Of a stretch of DNA of 64,000 nt, positions 8,933 to 50,503 are shown in pieces. A program made the translations under genes and the position numbers. The stretch comes from Escherichia coli (lineage in GTDB: Bacteria; Pseudomonadota; Gammaproteobacteria; Enterobacterales; Enterobacteriaceae): the NCBI RefSeq assembly GCF_003991155.1, contig NZ_CP031293.1; one strand, given 5' to 3'. Position 1 is the first letter of the stretch. Each line of letters starts with the position of its first letter. Below the pieces are notes generated by a model that was not told the DNA's origin, did not search any database, and saw only the letters and a list, made by a program, of their open reading frames with translations.

Positions 8933-8944
8933 GCCAGCGATGGC
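8933..8944. repeat. Target-site duplication (left copy), gccagcgatggc
   Basis: Exact 12-bp direct repeat flanking the IS at 8933-8944 and 10371-10382. Confidence 0.8.
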
Positions 8945-10370
8945 TAATGCCAGTCAGTTAAGCAACTGACTGGCTCTTTTTCGGGGCTGTGGGGTATTTC
9001 CAGGGCCTCTCCTTTACCACTCTCGGGAAGGCCCTTTCCCTTCTTGTCGGTAATTTCACAAGTTGTCCCATACTTGCAAGATCGCGCATCAGCTCCGGTA
9101 TACGTCCCGGTGAAGCGCCCTGCAATGTCATCAGCATTCTCATCACCATTCCGCATGATTCTGAGAAACTCAGTTGATTCGGCCAGTAACCTTTCAGATG
9201 TTCCGCCATTTTAATCATCTGATATCTCACCAGATTATAAGCCAGTAAGACACCCCACAGCTCTTGCTCCACAAGCTCCGGTTTTTTACTTCTCAGCGTC
9301 AGCCTGCTCAGTTGCATCGTCTGTTTTATCTCCCTGTATCCCAGTTCGATTTCCCAGCGATGACTGTACAGATCCGCCATTTCTCCTCCGGGGAAGCGCA
9401 TGGCGTCCGTCATCGACGTCAGCAGATGGCAGACTTTTCCTTTGCGCGTCACGGTCAGCAGGCGGGCTGTCACTTCATTTCCCAGTCCCGGCCACTTTTT
9501 TCGTGCCTGCGGGCTGGTTTTCAGCTTCACCAGATGATCGCCTTTACCCAGTTTTCTGATCTCTTCATATTGCGCTCCCTTTCTGAGAGGTATCATCCAG
9601 TGGCGGTGTTCTCCCGCCAGGCTCCAGGCATTTAACAGTCCCAGTGAGTAATAACCTTTATCCATTAACGTCAGAGTGTTATCGCCGGTTTGTTCTATAA
9701 GTTGCTCAGCAAGCTCATTTTCGCTGTTCTTCATCGTGCCGAAGGCTGCAGCCGTCAGCAGATGGCTGGTCAGTTCCATCTGGCAGACCATTTTGACCTG
9801 CGGGTAGAGCGCCGGGTTCCCGGCATGTGTCTGGCGGGGGAAGGCTGCATCGTTCTCTGGTGTATCCGGTGTGCGCCAGAACACACCATCGATGGCCAGC
9901 AAGGTCAGGCCGCACCAGTGCGGATGCGGCGTGGCGTTATGCCAGAGCTGCGCTGTTTTCGTGAACACGCGGCGGACAGCCTCACTTCCCAGGCGCTGGC
10001 GGGCCTGAATAACGGCACTGGGGGCAACGAAGGGGCGATTGCCCGGCAGCATGATGTCCAGGCGATTCACAATCTGGTGAAGAGGTTCTTTACGCTCAAG
10101 CGCCATGCCAACAATACACCAGACCATCATTTCGAGGGGAAGACGGCGCTTGCGTAGCGTTACAGTACCTGATTCGGCAAGGCAACGAGAGATGAGTTCG
10201 GGGTCGAGGTAATCCCCCAGAGAAGTCAGTGGGTTACGCAGAGAATCGTAACGGGATACCAGATCAAGAGCCTGTCCAATGTGCATAAAAAAATCCGGAA
10301 ACAAGTGAGCGTTTCCGGATTCTTACACAGCCACTGGATCGGTCAACTGATCCTTAACTGATCGGCATTA
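8945..10370 (-). mobile_element. IS4-type insertion sequence, 1426 bp, apparently intact
   Basis: Single long transposase ORF; imperfect terminal inverted repeats TAATGCCAGTCAGTTAAG (left) and CTTAACTGATCGGCATTA (right, i.e. TAATGCCGATCAGTTAAG in reverse complement); flanked by 12-bp direct repeat; length matches IS4 as recalled. Confidence 0.85.
8958..10286 (-). CDS. insG: IS4-family (DDE) transposase, 442 aa
   Basis: ORF 8958..10304 (track start is TTG); first ATG gives [16 protein letters not shown]...; sequence recognised as the E. coli IS4 transposase. Confidence 0.85.
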
Positions 10371-10382
10371 GCCAGCGATGGC
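10371..10382. repeat. Target-site duplication (right copy), gccagcgatggc
   Basis: Identical to 8933-8944. Confidence 0.8.
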
Positions 10383-10408: not shown

Positions 10409-12232
10409 TTAATCGTCTTTCGGTGCGCGGTTGGCGCGACGACGATCGTTTTCCGTCAGGTGACGTTTACGAATACGGATAGAGGTCGGAGTCACTTCTA
10501 CCAGTTCGTCATCATCGATGAACTCCAGAGCTTGTTCCAGAGTCATGCGGATAGGCGGAACCAGAACAACGGCTTCGTCAGTACCGGAAGCACGCATGTT
10601 GGTCAGTTTCTTACCGGTCAGGCAGTTTACAGTCAGGTCGTTAGAGCGGCTGTGAATGCCGATAATCTGACCTTCGTAAACTTCTGCACCGTGACCGAGG
10701 AACAGCTTACCGCGGTCCTGCAGACCGAACAGCGCGAACGCTACCGCTTTACCCTGACCGTTAGAGATCAGTACGCCGTTCTGACGCTGACCCACTTCAC
10801 CCGGACGTACGTCGTCGTAGTGGCTGAAGGTGGAGTACAGCAGACCAGTACCGGAAGTCATGGTCATGAACTCAGAACGGAAGCCAATCAGACCACGGCT
10901 TGGGATCACGTAGTCGAGACGTACGCGGCCTTTACCGTCTGGATTCATGTTTTTCAGGTCGCCTTTACGTTCGCCCAGCGCCTGCATCACAGAACCCTGA
11001 TGCTGTTCTTCAACGTCCAGCGTCACGTTTTCATACGGCTCTTGTTTACGACCGTCGATTTCACGGAAGATTACTTTCGGACGGGATACCGCCAGTTCGA
11101 AACCTTCACGACGCATGTTTTCAATAAGAACAGACAGGTGCAGTTCGCCACGACCAGAAACGCGGAACGCATCGGCGTCTTCGGTTTCTTCTACGCGCAG
11201 CGCAACGTTGTGTACCAGTTCTTTGTTCAGACGATCCAGGATCTGACGAGACGTTACGAACTTACCTTCTTTACCGCAGAACGGCGAGGTGTTAACGCAG
11301 AAGAACATAGAAACGGTCGGCTCATCAACGGAGAGTGCCGGCAGCGCTTCAACGTTTTGCGTGTCGCAAACGGTGTCAGAAATGTTCAGTTCGCCCAGGC
11401 CCGTGATCGCCACGATATCGCCAGCTTCCGCCAGATCGGTTTCAATACGTTCCAGACCGAGGTGGCCCAGCACTTTACCGACTTTCGCGTTACGGGTTTT
11501 GCCTTCGCTATCGATGATAGTGACCTGCTGGTTCGGCTTCACTTTACCGCGCTTGATGCGGCCAATGCCGATAACGCCAACATAGCTGTTGTAATCGAGC
11601 TGAGAAATCTGCATCTGGAACGGACCGTCAAGGTCAACGTCCGGCGCAGGAACGTGGTCAACAATCGCCTGATACAGCGGGGTCATGTCTTCCGCCATAT
11701 CTTCGTGGTCCAGACCCGCGATACCGTTCAGCGCAGAAGCGTAAACGATCGGGAAGTCCAGCTGCTCGTCGGTCGCGTCGAGGTTAACGAACAGATCGAA
11801 TACCTGATCCACAACCCAATCAGGACGCGCGCCAGGGCGGTCAACTTTGTTGATAACAACAATCGGCTTCAGGCCGTAAGCAAACGCTTTTTTGGTTACG
11901 AAGCGCGTTTGCGGCATCGGGCCGTCAAATGCGTCAACCACCAGCAGCACTGAGTCTACCATGGACATTACACGTTCAACTTCACCACCGAAGTCGGCGT
12001 GCCCCGGGGTATCAACGATGTTGATACGGTAATCATTCCATTTGATAGCGGTGTTTTTCGCGAGGATGGTAATCCCACGCTCTTTCTCCAAATCGTTGGA
12101 GTCCATCACGCGCTCTTGGGTTTCGGCACGAGAGTCGAACGTACCGGATTGTTGGAGCAGCTTGTCTACCAGGGTGGTTTTACCATGGTCTACGTGCGCG
12201 ATGATGGCGATATTACGCAATTTTTCGATCAC
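10409..12232 (-). CDS. typA: Ribosome-associated translational GTPase BipA/TypA
   Basis: 607-aa ORF, N-terminal G-domain [13 protein letters not shown]-like domain architecture. Confidence 0.95.
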
Positions 12233-12383
12233 AACTTTGCCTCAGGCATTAGAAATAGCGCGTTATTGTACACGGATTAATCGCACTACAAAACAGGATC
12301 ACAAACATCCTCCGCAAACAAGTATTGCAGAGTCCCTTTGTGATCGCTTTCACGGAGCATAAAAAGGGTTATCCAAAGGTCAT

Positions 12384-12462
12384 TGCACCAACATGGTGCT
12401 TAATGTTTCCATTGAAGCACTATATTGGTGCAACATTCACATCATGGTGCAGCCCTTTTGCA
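12384..12462 (+). promoter_or_regulatory. NtrC (NRI) enhancer sites upstream of glnA
   Basis: TGCACCAacatGGTGCt (12384-12400), GCACtatatTGGTGCA (12417-12433) and a third GGTGCA..TTGCAC element, matching the TGCACC-N5-GGTGCA consensus. Confidence 0.75.
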
Positions 12463-12505
12463 CGATGTTAAGCATGATAACGCCTTTTAGGGGCAATTTA
12501 AAAGT

Positions 12506-12521
12506 TGGCACAGATTTCGCT
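12506..12521 (+). promoter_or_regulatory. glnAp2 sigma-54 promoter (-24/-12)
   Basis: TGGCAC-agatt-TCGCT about 85 nt upstream of the glnA ATG; matches recalled glnAp2 sequence. Confidence 0.8.
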
Positions 12522-12604
12522 TTATCTTTTTTACGGCGACACGGCCAAAATAATTGCAGATTTCGTTACCACGACGACCATGACCAATCCAGGAGAGTTA
12601 AAGT

Positions 12605-14014
12605 ATGTCCGCTGAACACGTACTGACGATGCTGAACGAGCACGAAGTGAAGTTTGTTGATTTGCGCTTCACCGATACCAAAGGTAAAGAACAGCACGTC
12701 ACTATCCCTGCTCATCAGGTGAATGCTGAATTCTTCGAAGAAGGCAAAATGTTTGACGGCTCCTCGATTGGCGGCTGGAAAGGCATTAACGAATCCGACA
12801 TGGTGCTGATGCCAGACGCATCCACCGCAGTGATTGACCCGTTCTTCGCGGATTCTACCCTGATTATCCGTTGCGACATCCTTGAACCTGGCACCCTGCA
12901 AGGCTATGACCGTGACCCGCGCTCTATTGCGAAGCGCGCCGAAGATTACCTGCGTTCCACTGGCATTGCCGACACCGTACTGTTCGGGCCAGAACCTGAA
13001 TTCTTCCTGTTCGATGACATCCGTTTCGGATCATCTATCTCCGGTTCCCACGTTGCTATCGACGATATCGAAGGCGCATGGAACTCCTCCACCCAATACG
13101 AAGGTGGTAACAAAGGTCACCGTCCGGCAGTGAAAGGCGGTTACTTCCCGGTTCCGCCGGTAGACTCTGCTCAGGATATTCGTTCTGAAATGTGTCTGGT
13201 GATGGAACAGATGGGTCTGGTGGTTGAAGCCCATCACCACGAAGTAGCGACTGCTGGTCAGAACGAAGTGGCTACCCGCTTCAATACCATGACCAAAAAA
13301 GCTGACGAAATTCAGATCTACAAATATGTTGTGCACAACGTAGCGCACCGCTTCGGTAAAACTGCGACCTTTATGCCAAAACCGATGTTCGGTGATAACG
13401 GCTCCGGTATGCACTGCCACATGTCGCTGTCTAAAAACGGCGTTAACCTGTTTGCTGGCGACAAATACGCAGGTCTGTCTGAACAGGCGCTGTACTACAT
13501 TGGCGGCGTAATCAAACACGCGAAAGCGATTAATGCCCTGGCAAACCCGACCACCAACTCTTACAAGCGTCTGGTCCCGGGCTACGAAGCACCGGTAATG
13601 CTGGCTTACTCTGCGCGTAACCGTTCTGCGTCTATCCGTATTCCGGTGGTTTCTTCTCCGAAAGCACGTCGTATCGAAGTACGTTTCCCGGACCCGGCGG
13701 CTAACCCGTACCTGTGCTTTGCTGCCCTGCTGATGGCCGGTCTTGACGGTATCAAGAACAAGATCCATCCGGGCGAAGCGATGGACAAAAACCTGTATGA
13801 CCTGCCGCCGGAAGAAGCGAAAGAGATCCCACAGGTTGCTGGTTCTCTGGAAGAAGCACTGAACGAACTGGATCTGGACCGCGAGTTCCTGAAAGCCGGT
13901 GGCGTGTTCACTGATGAAGCGATCGATGCGTACATCGCTCTGCGTCGCGAAGAAGATGACCGTGTGCGTATGACTCCGCATCCGGTAGAGTTTGAGCTGT
14001 ACTACAGCGTCTAA
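12605..14014 (+). CDS. glnA: Glutamine synthetase (type I)
   Basis: 469-aa ORF; adenylylation-site context NLYDLPPEE present. Confidence 0.97.
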
Positions 14015-14074
14015 TAGTTGAAGTTGTACTACCCGGCGCAACAACGCCGGGATTTAGTTGCCGTGGAAACTTTC

Positions 14075-14100
14075 AGCCCATCTCTGCATGGGCTTTTTTC
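14075..14100 (+). terminator. Rho-independent terminator after glnA
   Basis: Hairpin agcccatctctgcatgggct followed by TTTTTT. Confidence 0.7.
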
Positions 14101-14140
14101 TCCGTCAATTCTCTGATGCTTCGCGCTTTTTATCCGTAAA

Positions 14141-14166
14141 AAGCTATAATGCACTAAAATGGTGCA
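14141..14166 (+). promoter_or_regulatory. glnL promoter region with overlapping NtrC operator
   Basis: -10-like TATAAT at 14145-14150 immediately followed by palindrome TGCACTAAAATGGTGCA (14150-14166). Confidence 0.7.
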
Positions 14167-14187
14167 ACCTGTTCAGGAGACTGCTTT

Positions 14188-15237
14188 ATGGCAACAGGCA
14201 CGCAGCCCGATGCTGGGCAGATCCTCAACTCGCTGATTAACAGTATTTTGTTAATTGATGACAATCTGGCGATCCATTACGCCAACCCCGCCGCGCAACA
14301 ACTGCTCGCCCAAAGCTCCCGCAAATTGTTTGGTACGCCGTTACCGGAACTGTTGAGCTACTTCTCATTAAATATCGAGCTGATGCAAGAAAGTCTGGAG
14401 GCGGGGCAAGGTTTTACCGATAACGAAGTGACGCTGGTCATCGACGGGCGCTCGCATATCCTTTCTGTGACGGCCCAGCGTATGCCGGACGGCATGATCC
14501 TGCTGGAGATGGCTCCGATGGATAACCAGCGCCGCTTAAGTCAGGAACAGCTACAGCACGCCCAGCAGGTTGCTGCCCGTGATTTAGTGCGCGGCCTGGC
14601 ACATGAGATTAAAAATCCGCTTGGCGGTTTACGTGGCGCGGCGCAGCTGCTCAGCAAAGCGTTACCTGACCCATCACTACTCGAATATACCAAAGTGATT
14701 ATCGAACAGGCGGACCGGCTGCGAAATCTGGTCGACCGTCTGTTGGGGCCGCAGCTGCCCGGTACGCGCGTTACCGAAAGTATTCACAAAGTGGCTGAAC
14801 GCGTGGTAACGCTGGTGTCGATGGAACTGCCGGACAACGTGCGGTTGATTCGTGATTACGATCCCAGCCTGCCGGAACTGGCGCACGACCCGGATCAAAT
14901 TGAACAGGTCTTGCTGAATATTGTGCGCAATGCGCTACAGGCGCTGGGGCCGGAAGGCGGTGAAATCATTCTGCGTACCCGCACCGCGTTTCAACTGACC
15001 TTACACGGCGAGCGCTACCGGCTGGCGGCGCGGATTGATGTGGAAGATAACGGGCCGGGCATTCCGCCTCATTTGCAGGATACGCTGTTTTACCCGATGG
15101 TCAGCGGCCGCGAAGGTGGCACCGGGCTTGGCTTATCCATCGCTCGTAATTTGATTGATCAGCATTCAGGCAAAATTGAATTTACCAGTTGGCCAGGGCA
15201 TACCGAGTTCTCGGTTTACCTGCCTATCAGGAAATAA
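14188..15237 (+). CDS. glnL: Nitrogen regulation sensor histidine kinase NtrB (NRII)
   Basis: 349-aa ORF; H-box [11 protein letters not shown]; ATPase G-boxes. Confidence 0.95.
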
Positions 15238-15248
15238 AGGTGACGTTT

Positions 15249-16658
15249 ATGCAACGAGGGATAGTCTGGGTAGTCGATGACGATAGTTCCATCCGTTGGG
15301 TGCTTGAACGTGCGCTCGCTGGGGCAGGTTTAACCTGTACGACGTTTGAGAACGGCGCAGAAGTGCTGGAGGCGCTGGCGAGCAAAACGCCGGATGTGCT
15401 GCTTTCAGATATCCGTATGCCGGGAATGGACGGGCTGGCGCTGCTCAAGCAGATTAAACAGCGCCATCCAATGCTTCCGGTCATCATTATGACCGCACAT
15501 TCCGATCTTGATGCTGCCGTCAGCGCCTATCAACAAGGGGCGTTTGATTATCTGCCCAAACCGTTTGATATCGACGAAGCCGTGGCGCTGGTTGAGCGCG
15601 CCATCAGTCATTACCAGGAACAGCAGCAGCCGCGTAATGTTCAGCTTAACGGCCCAACGACCGATATCATCGGCGAAGCGCCAGCCATGCAGGACGTGTT
15701 CCGTATTATCGGTCGGCTTTCGCGTTCTTCTATTAGCGTGCTGATTAACGGCGAATCCGGCACCGGTAAAGAACTGGTCGCTCATGCCCTGCATCGCCAC
15801 AGTCCGCGAGCCAAAGCGCCGTTTATCGCGCTGAATATGGCAGCTATCCCAAAAGATTTGATCGAATCAGAACTGTTTGGTCACGAGAAAGGCGCGTTTA
15901 CCGGCGCGAATACCATTCGTCAGGGGCGTTTTGAACAGGCTGATGGCGGTACATTATTCCTCGATGAAATTGGCGATATGCCGCTGGATGTGCAGACGCG
16001 TTTGCTGCGCGTGCTGGCAGACGGTCAGTTTTACCGCGTTGGCGGCTATGCGCCGGTGAAAGTGGATGTGCGGATTATCGCTGCCACTCACCAGAATCTT
16101 GAACAGCGGGTGCAGGAAGGTAAGTTCCGTGAGGATCTGTTCCACCGCCTGAACGTTATCCGCGTTCATCTGCCGCCACTGCGTGAGCGTCGGGAAGATA
16201 TTCCCCGTCTGGCACGCCATTTTTTACAGGTTGCCGCGCGAGAGCTGGGCGTAGAAGCGAAGTTGCTGCATCCGGAAACCGAAGCCGCGCTGACGCGTCT
16301 GGCGTGGCCAGGCAACGTGCGCCAGCTGGAAAACACCTGTCGCTGGCTAACGGTGATGGCCGCCGGGCAGGAAGTGTTGATTCAGGATTTGCCCGGTGAA
16401 CTGTTTGAATCAACGGTTGCGGAGAGTACTTCGCAAATGCAACCGGACAGTTGGGCGACACTTTTAGCGCAGTGGGCAGATCGGGCGCTACGTTCCGGTC
16501 ATCAAAATCTGCTTTCCGAAGCGCAGCCTGAGCTGGAGCGGACGTTACTGACGACCGCGTTGCGACATACGCAGGGGCATAAACAGGAAGCAGCGCGGCT
16601 ACTTGGCTGGGGCCGTAACACCCTGACGCGTAAGTTAAAAGAGCTGGGAATGGAGTGA
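15249..16658 (+). CDS. glnG: Nitrogen regulation response regulator NtrC (sigma-54 enhancer-binding protein)
   Basis: ORF 15189..16658; start at [12 protein letters not shown] (15249) gives 469 aa; receiver domain, AAA+ GESGTGKE and GAFTGA motifs, C-terminal HTH. Confidence 0.95.
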
Positions 16659-19141: not shown

Positions 19142-19207
19142 AATGGTTCGTCTTTTAGCCGTTTTATTCAGTATAGATTTGCGGCGGAATCTAACAGAAA
19201 GCAAGCA

Positions 19208-19452
19208 AAGAAAAAAGGCGACAGATTACTCTGTCGCCTTTTTTCCTGACTCATAACCCTTAACGGGTCTTACAATCCTTGCAGGCCGCCAACACACCCT
19301 GTTTTTCCATTAGCCGGAACAATCCGTGTTGATTCCATTTCCGTTTAATTACGTCTCCGGACGTTTGTCTTCCTGACAATCCTCTGTCTTCGCCTCCTGG
19401 CGCTCCTGACCCTCATCCTGAGTCATTGTTCCTGTTAGCGTCCTCGCTCTAT
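19208..19452 (-). ncRNA. csrC: CsrC sRNA (CsrA-sequestering RNA)
   Basis: Minus-strand sequence ATAGAGCGAGGACGCTAACAGGAACAATGACTCAGGATGAGGG... with many GGA motifs, ending in hairpin ggcgacagagtaatctgtcgcc plus U-run; lies in the yihI-engB spacer as in K-12. Confidence 0.75.
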
Positions 19453-20480: not shown

Positions 20481-20589
20481 TAAAAAACGCCCCAGTCATT
20501 ACTGACTGGGGCGGCTAAAATATTCAGCCAAATCCGATTACGTGAAGTAAAAGGTCTGAAAGATAGAACATCTTACCTCTGTACCCTAC
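20481..20589 (-). ncRNA. spf: Spot 42 sRNA
   Basis: Reverse complement reads GTAGGGTACAGAGGTAAGATGTTCTATCTTTCAGACCTTTTACTTCACGTAATCGGATTTGGCTGAATATTTTAGCCGCCCCAGTCAGTAATGACTGGGGCGTTTTTTA (109 nt), the Spot 42 sequence with its terminator. Confidence 0.9.
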
Positions 20590-20736
20590 GCGACTAACTT
20601 TACTCTTTTTTGTTCAGTTCAGAAAGCATTTTTTGTAATTTTTTTTCAGTTGTTGCATAGGAATTTCTAATAGCCATCACAAAACGTGACAGCTTATGTT
20701 GCTTACTTACGAAAAAAGGGCATGTTCAGGCGAATC

Positions 20737-29683: not shown

Positions 29684-29803
29684 ATGCCTGGCAGTTCCCT
29701 ACTCTCGCATGGGGAGACCCCACACTACCATCGGCGCTACGGCGTTTCACTTCTGAGTTCGGCATGGGGTCAGGTGGGACCACCGCGCTACGGCCGCCAG
29801 GCA
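29684..29803 (-). rRNA. rrfA: 5S ribosomal RNA (120 nt)
   Basis: Reverse complement reads TGCCTGGCGGCCGTAGCGCGGTGGTCCCACCTGACCCCATGCCGAACTCAG...GGAACTGCCAGGCAT. Confidence 0.97.
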
Positions 29804-29896
29804 AATTCTGTTTTATTAACCCGCTTGTCGCCGGTTAATTTAATCTGTATCAGGCTGAAAATCTTCTCTCTTCCGCCAAAACACCTTCGGCGTTGT

Positions 29897-32800
<2,904 letters not shown>

Positions 32801-32982
32801 TCACAACCCGAAGATGTTTCTTTCGATTCATCATCGTGTTGCGAAAATTTGAGAGACTCACGAACAACTTTCGTTGTTCAGTGTTTCAATTTTCAGCTTG
32901 ATCCAGATTTTTAAAGAGCAAAACTTCGCAGTGAACCTTTGCAGGTACACTCTGAAGTATTTTTATTTAATCACTACAGAGA

Positions 32983-33058
32983 TGGTGGAGCTATGCGGGA
33001 TCGAACCGCAGACCTCCTGCGTGCAAAGCAGGCGCTCTCCCAGCTGAGCTATAGCCCC
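32983..33058 (-). tRNA. alaT: tRNA-Ala (UGC), spacer tRNA
   Basis: Reverse complement GGGGCTATAGCTCAGCTGGGAGAGCGCCTGCTTTGCACGCAGGAGGTCTGCGGTTCGATCCCGCATAGCTCCACCA (76 nt). Confidence 0.97.
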
Positions 33059-33100
33059 ATAACATGTAGTTAAAACCTCTTCAAATTTGCGGTGCAAATT

Positions 33101-33177
<77 letters not shown>

Positions 33178-33245
33178 GTAGAGGTTTTACTGCTCATTTT
33201 CATCAGACAATCTGTGTGAGCACTGCAAAGTACGCTTCTTTAAGG

Positions 33246-34787
<1,542 letters not shown>

Positions 34788-48260: not shown

Positions 48261-50503
<2,243 letters not shown>

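Follow-up and report, generated by a model that had tools for sequence, protein, structure and literature searches.

The DNA that we analyzed, a 64,000-nucleotide stretch of the Escherichia coli chromosome referred to below as the window, almost certainly carries the canonical glnALG control region of this species. This control region is already known: no sigma-54 promoter has been studied more than the one that it houses, which is found here at its native location, and the elements that an earlier note had named from the letters are unchanged. As a finding it matters little, its use being that of a positive control for recognizing regulatory architecture from raw sequence. The sole, and modest, novelty is a common natural allele of site IV, a low-affinity NtrC site that belongs to the "governor" of the glnA promoter.

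The typA-glnA-glnL-glnG gene order, together with 100% identity to a syntenic complete E. coli chromosome annotated in this way, identifies the source of the stretch. Around the control region the genes follow one another as yihL (minus strand), an IS4 transposase gene (minus strand), typA/bipA (10409-12232, minus strand), and then, all on the plus strand, glnA (12605-14014), glnL (14188-15237), and glnG (15249-16658). The last three encode glutamine synthetase (469 aa), the NtrB/NRII sensor kinase (349 aa), and NtrC/NRI (469 aa), respectively, so that the sigma-54 activator, with its sigma-54-interaction AAA+ domain, is itself encoded in the window. GlnA, NtrB, NtrC, and TypA are 100% identical in amino acids to their K-12 counterparts, and the nucleotide differences, of which there are 28 in glnA, are synonymous only. 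The 372-bp typA-glnA intergenic region is matched in 5,425 of 5,426 complete E. coli genomes. Elsewhere in the window, Rfam matches correspond to CsrC (19199-19452), Spot 42 (20481-20599), a complete rrn operon with two tRNAs (29686-34787), and the Erse sRNA (49898-50149), a set that fits the region of the E. coli chromosome around 87 min.

The glnAp2 Promoter and Its Enhancer

The promoter at the heart of this region, glnAp2, is readable as a sigma-54 element of the form TGGCAC-AGATT-TCGCT (TGGCACAGATTTCGCT), located on the plus strand at 12506-12521, exactly where the earlier note had placed it, and identical to K-12. Its GG (12507-8, at -25/-24) and GC (12519-20, at -13/-12) are one helical turn apart, and when the element is compared with the TGGCAC-N5-TTGCW consensus there is a single mismatch (TCGCT vs. 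TTGCW), which falls outside both dinucleotides. In an alignment with the characterized glnAp2, there is likewise no substitution at the GG or the GC, the positions at which a change would have spoken most directly against the assignment made in the earlier note. In K-12, this identical sequence is known to depend on rpoN (PMC5159524). Published offsets would put the glnAp2 start site at about 12532, 12 nt past the GC and with a leader of 73 nt ahead of the glnA ATG.

Upstream of this promoter lie two tandem NtrC palindromes, whose letters are as the earlier note had reported them. High-affinity site I, TGCACCAACATGGTGCT, spans 12384-12400 (center 12392) and agrees with the consensus at 13 of 14 positions, while high-affinity site II, (A)GCACTATATTGGTGCA, spans 12416-12432 (center 12424) and agrees at 12 of 14; both are identical to K-12. 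Their centers are 32 bp apart, which is the spacing, about three helical turns, of the two TGCACC-N5-GGTGCA sites in a glnAp2-type enhancer. When +1 is set at 12532, sites I and II are centered exactly at -140 and -108, as published, site I having been described at -140 (PMC5159524). The palindromes had been said to lie about 100-140 bp upstream of the promoter element, and this holds if the distance is counted from the start site but not if it is counted from the -24 GG, to which the centers are only ~83-84 and 115-116 bp away; measured to the whole -24/-12 element, they lie 83-96 and 115-128 bp upstream. Site I also overlaps the promoter region of glnAp1, as an operator, and site II overlaps the probable start of that promoter, at about 12417-12418.

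Cross-genus conservation sets these elements apart from the DNA in which they are embedded. The exact 20-nt sigma-54 core is found upstream of glnA in 80 Enterobacteriaceae loci (one genome per species), although its columns are identical by virtue of the way in which the loci were selected and thus carry no weight as conservation. Among these core matches, 73 non-E. coli loci have enough flanking sequence for comparison. In these other-genus loci, the half-sites of sites I and II are invariant, the CRP site upstream is nearly so, and the right half of site III and the TTGCAC of site IV are invariant or nearly invariant, while the sequence in between varies freely. Within the species, the E. 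coli strains LH50-c, ETEC6335, and AST85 show further polymorphisms when compared with 12380-12535 of the window, namely a C/T difference within the site I spacer, an A/T difference in the sigma-54 N5 (AGATT vs. AGTTT), and a G/A difference in site V, all of which avoid the conserved positions.

The glnAp1 Promoter and Its CRP Site

The earlier note did not mention the CRP site, glnAp1, or the low-affinity NtrC sites III-V. A CRP-binding site, TGTGATCGCTTTCACG, can be read at 12339-12354 (center 12346.5) and is identical to K-12; a classical CRP site has been described upstream of glnAp1 (PMC1865078). By the published offset of 115 bp upstream of glnAp2 (PMC1865078), glnAp1 would start at ~12417-12418, with the center of the CRP site at about -71.5. 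The features of a CRP-dependent sigma-70 promoter are thus in place: the CRP site is upstream, and the probable start is flanked by NtrC sites I and II. A simple sigma-70 consensus scan returned no good -35/-10 pair for glnAp1, and it also missed the glnL promoter. We do not count this against either promoter, given that neither is strong and that the scan makes stringent demands on the -35; for glnAp1, the lack of such a pair is as expected of a weak, activator-dependent promoter.

On the opposite strand, Rfam reports a match to the ES222 sRNA (135 bits; 12314-12421, minus strand). Directed toward typA and antisense to the region of glnAp1, it covers DNA that also holds the CRP site, NtrC site I, and a portion of site II. 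A terminator-like hairpin (12332-12310) closes the match, which has a better fold than shuffled sequences (z = -3.2). It may correspond to an upstream or leader transcript of typA, the promoter of which would share DNA bound by NtrC. A literature search on ES222 found nothing relevant.

The glnL Promoter

A third strong NtrC site lies on the other side of glnA. The glnL promoter (glnLp, plus strand) displays a -10 element, TATAAT, at 14145-14150, which directly adjoins an NtrC operator, TGCACTAAAATGGTGCA, at 14150-14166, the last T of the former being common to both. The operator agrees with the consensus at 13 of 14 positions and is identical to K-12. The overlap of an NtrC palindrome with the glnL promoter, as previously proposed, is thus borne out, and it matches K-12 in an alignment with the characterized glnLp; indeed, all of the 110 bases that precede the glnL ATG (14078-14187) are identical to K-12. 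The arrangement itself, a TATAA/TATAC run followed directly by a TGCAC-N7-GTGCA-like site (at least 11/14 of the consensus), is kept in 58 of 61 glnLp loci.

A Model for Nitrogen Control of the Locus

The anatomy of the region, its identity to K-12, and its conservation come from the present analysis; for the mechanism outlined here, we draw on published work on the identical sequence of K-12 (PMC5159524, PMC3870243, and PMC1865078). When nitrogen is limiting, NtrB (encoded by glnL) would phosphorylate NtrC (encoded by glnG), and NtrC~P would bind to the strong sites at -140 and -108 and oligomerize. Via DNA looping and ATP hydrolysis, it would then turn the closed complex formed by sigma-54 polymerase on TGGCAC-N5-TCGCT into an open complex. 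Transcription from glnAp2 would cover glnA and then, by read-through, glnLG, amounting to positive autoregulation. Because sites I and II overlie the weak, CRP-dependent sigma-70 promoter glnAp1, NtrC would repress glnAp1, and binding to the third strong site, at the -10 of glnLp, would repress this internal promoter and so provide negative autoregulation. The weak sites III-V, located between enhancer and promoter, would modulate output, with sites III and IV acting as the governor that would lower it at very high NtrC~P.

The earlier note had concluded that this nitrogen-control circuit appears intact. This stands for the elements that it named and for GlnA, NtrB, and NtrC; it does not extend to site IV, which is not K-12-like, nor to rpoN, glnB, and glnD, which are outside the window.

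A Common Natural Allele of Site IV

When compared with K-12 MG1655, the typA-glnA intergenic region is identical at 368 of its 372 bases, with the CRP site, NtrC sites I, II, and V, the sigma-54 element, and the leader unchanged. All four differences fall in low-affinity sites, one in the spacer of site III and three in the right arm of site IV. Site III (12435-12451, center 12443) agrees with the consensus at 9 of 14 positions; it differs from K-12 by a G>A at 12444, and its right half, ATGGTGCA, is conserved. Site V (12479-12495, center 12487) is a weak match (8/14). Both are centered as in K-12, at the published positions of -89 and -45, respectively (PMC5159524). As for site IV (12459-12475, at about -66), its left arm, TGCAC, is kept, while its right arm has been replaced, GGTGCG reading GTTAAG as a result of three substitutions (12468 G>T, 12470 G>A, and 12471 C>A). 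The K-12 allele scores 9 and 8/14 at -68 and -65, on either side of the published -66. The allele in the window, which retains only the left arm, scores less than 8 and is below the threshold of the scan.

The bases that the window carries at the three site IV columns occur in none (0/73) of the other-genus loci, most of which keep (G/A)GTGCG, and Salmonella and several Citrobacter carry the exact K-12 form. The allele therefore appears to be derived within E. coli, as judged from this comparison. It is common nevertheless: a 68-nt query matched exactly in 2,066 of 5,425 complete E. coli genomes (38%), including O157:H7, while the K-12 form is present in about 3,200. In strain ETEC6335, the ancestral site IV occurs alongside an A at 12444, which indicates that the three site IV substitutions go together as a block and do not depend on the polymorphism at 12444. 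When the literature was searched for a glnAp2 polymorphism already on record, no paper combining the terms came up, which is no proof that none exists.

Could this allele alter the output of glnAp2? It is possible, although we would put the chance at well short of even, that the architecture is canonical but that the derived allele weakens the function of the governor, in which case strains with this allele (among them the one analyzed here and O157:H7) would be predicted to exceed K-12-type glnAp2 output at very high NtrC~P. What makes this plausible is that, according to PMC5159524, which cites Atkinson 2002, engineered loss of site IV alone is reported to raise output to ~125% or ~224% at high NtrC. 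The nature of the change points the same way, since three substitutions within 4 bp remove the GGTGC arm, with bases foreign to all 73 other-genus loci, and are inherited together. However, site IV is weak to begin with, and its right arm also differs in several of the other genera (GACCTG, GACGTG, and GGAGTG, as well as GATGCT in E. albertii), which suggests relaxed constraint; the frequency of the allele among complete genomes further indicates that it is at least well tolerated. On balance, the variant may slightly raise the expression ceiling, but we regard it as rather doubtful that, in nature and across a whole lineage, the triple substitution has weakened the glnAp2 governor. Were this true, the two major E. 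coli regulatory haplotypes would differ in their ceiling of GS/NtrBC expression under severe nitrogen starvation.

The Nearby IS4 Insertion

The window also contains an IS4 element of 1,426 bp (8945-10370, minus strand), recognizable by its annotated IS4 transposase and flanked by a 12-bp target duplication, GCCAGCGATGGC, at 8933-8944 and 10371-10382. It sits in the loop and stem of a hairpin that, in K-12, separates the 3' end of typA from yihL. As inserted, it comes between the stop codon of typA and the T-run that probably belongs to the typA terminator, and it stands in front of yihL.

That IS4 might perturb gln regulation, for example by outward promoters or polarity, is very improbable. 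The hairpin downstream of typA is split, so typA transcription may read into IS4, but the end of the element (10370) is 2,014 bp from site I with the whole of typA in between, typA is transcribed away from glnA, and the typA-glnA intergenic region is uninterrupted. Position and orientation thus lead us to reject such an effect. The assertion in the earlier note that the gln region is unaffected by the nearby insertion sequence holds as far as the sequence goes, given that IS4 lies ~2 kb off, beyond the 3' end of typA. The difference in site IV is a common natural allele unrelated to IS4.

Consensus Scans

How strongly do the motifs stand out from the background? Loose patterns are of no help here. 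Over the whole window, an IUPAC pattern for NtrC sites allowing one mismatch found 3 matches vs. 3.3 expected from shuffled sequence, and the corresponding sigma-54 pattern found 3 vs. 3.4, neither of which is above chance. With these counts at chance level, the argument is built on where the motifs lie, on their identity to K-12, and on their conservation. We replaced the uninformative IUPAC counts with cross-genus conservation and a fuller consensus score, for which every 17-mer of the 64 kb was compared with TGCACCAnnnTGGTGCA at 14 positions. Only three 17-mers in the 64 kb score at least 12/14, starting at 12384, 12416, and 14150, and all three lie within the two intergenic regions flanking glnA, which together make up 545 of the 64,000 bases.

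From the one-mismatch counts, which equal the shuffled expectation, one might argue that the NtrC palindromes and the -24/-12 match arose by chance and play no part in regulation. This notion has a negligible probability and is refuted by the identity of the sequence to the experimentally characterized K-12 region, by half-sites that are invariant across genera amid variable flanks, by three sites that are the top three consensus matches in 64 kb and all beside glnA, and by the conserved arrangement of glnLp.

Comparison with Other E. coli Strains

The best match to the whole region is strain 2016C-3878, which has the same IS4 in the same place and a 372-bp typA-glnA intergenic region that is 100% identical. 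A further difference from K-12 lies downstream of glnA, where the glnA-glnL spacer is 173 bp long vs. 285 bp in K-12, the 3' UTR of glnA being 112 bp shorter here. This 3' UTR (14015-14100, plus strand) is of the short EsrF/GlnZ form and is devoid of the REP insertion of K-12 GlnZ; E. coli genomes show at least three length variants of it, and classes of GlnZ have been described (bioRxiv 10.1101/2022.04.01.486790). It exhibits a seed-like GTTGCCGTGGAAACTT that adjoins a terminator hairpin (14075-14094) and its T-run. A search of Rfam gave no GlnZ family match at the glnA 3' UTR, and the region was compared directly with K-12 and O157:H7 instead. In enterohemorrhagic E. coli (EHEC) O157:H7, which has an EsrF-type GlnZ, the 3' end of glnA and the 3' UTR are identical to the window over 14005-14130, and the haplotype of sites III-V is the same, with no difference in the stretches compared.

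Of the two common natural haplotypes of the low-affinity governor sites, K-12, the laboratory model, thus carries only one. The other, shared by the strain analyzed here and O157:H7, is without half of site IV, and together the two offer a ready natural experiment on what low-affinity activator sites do, a matter of debate.
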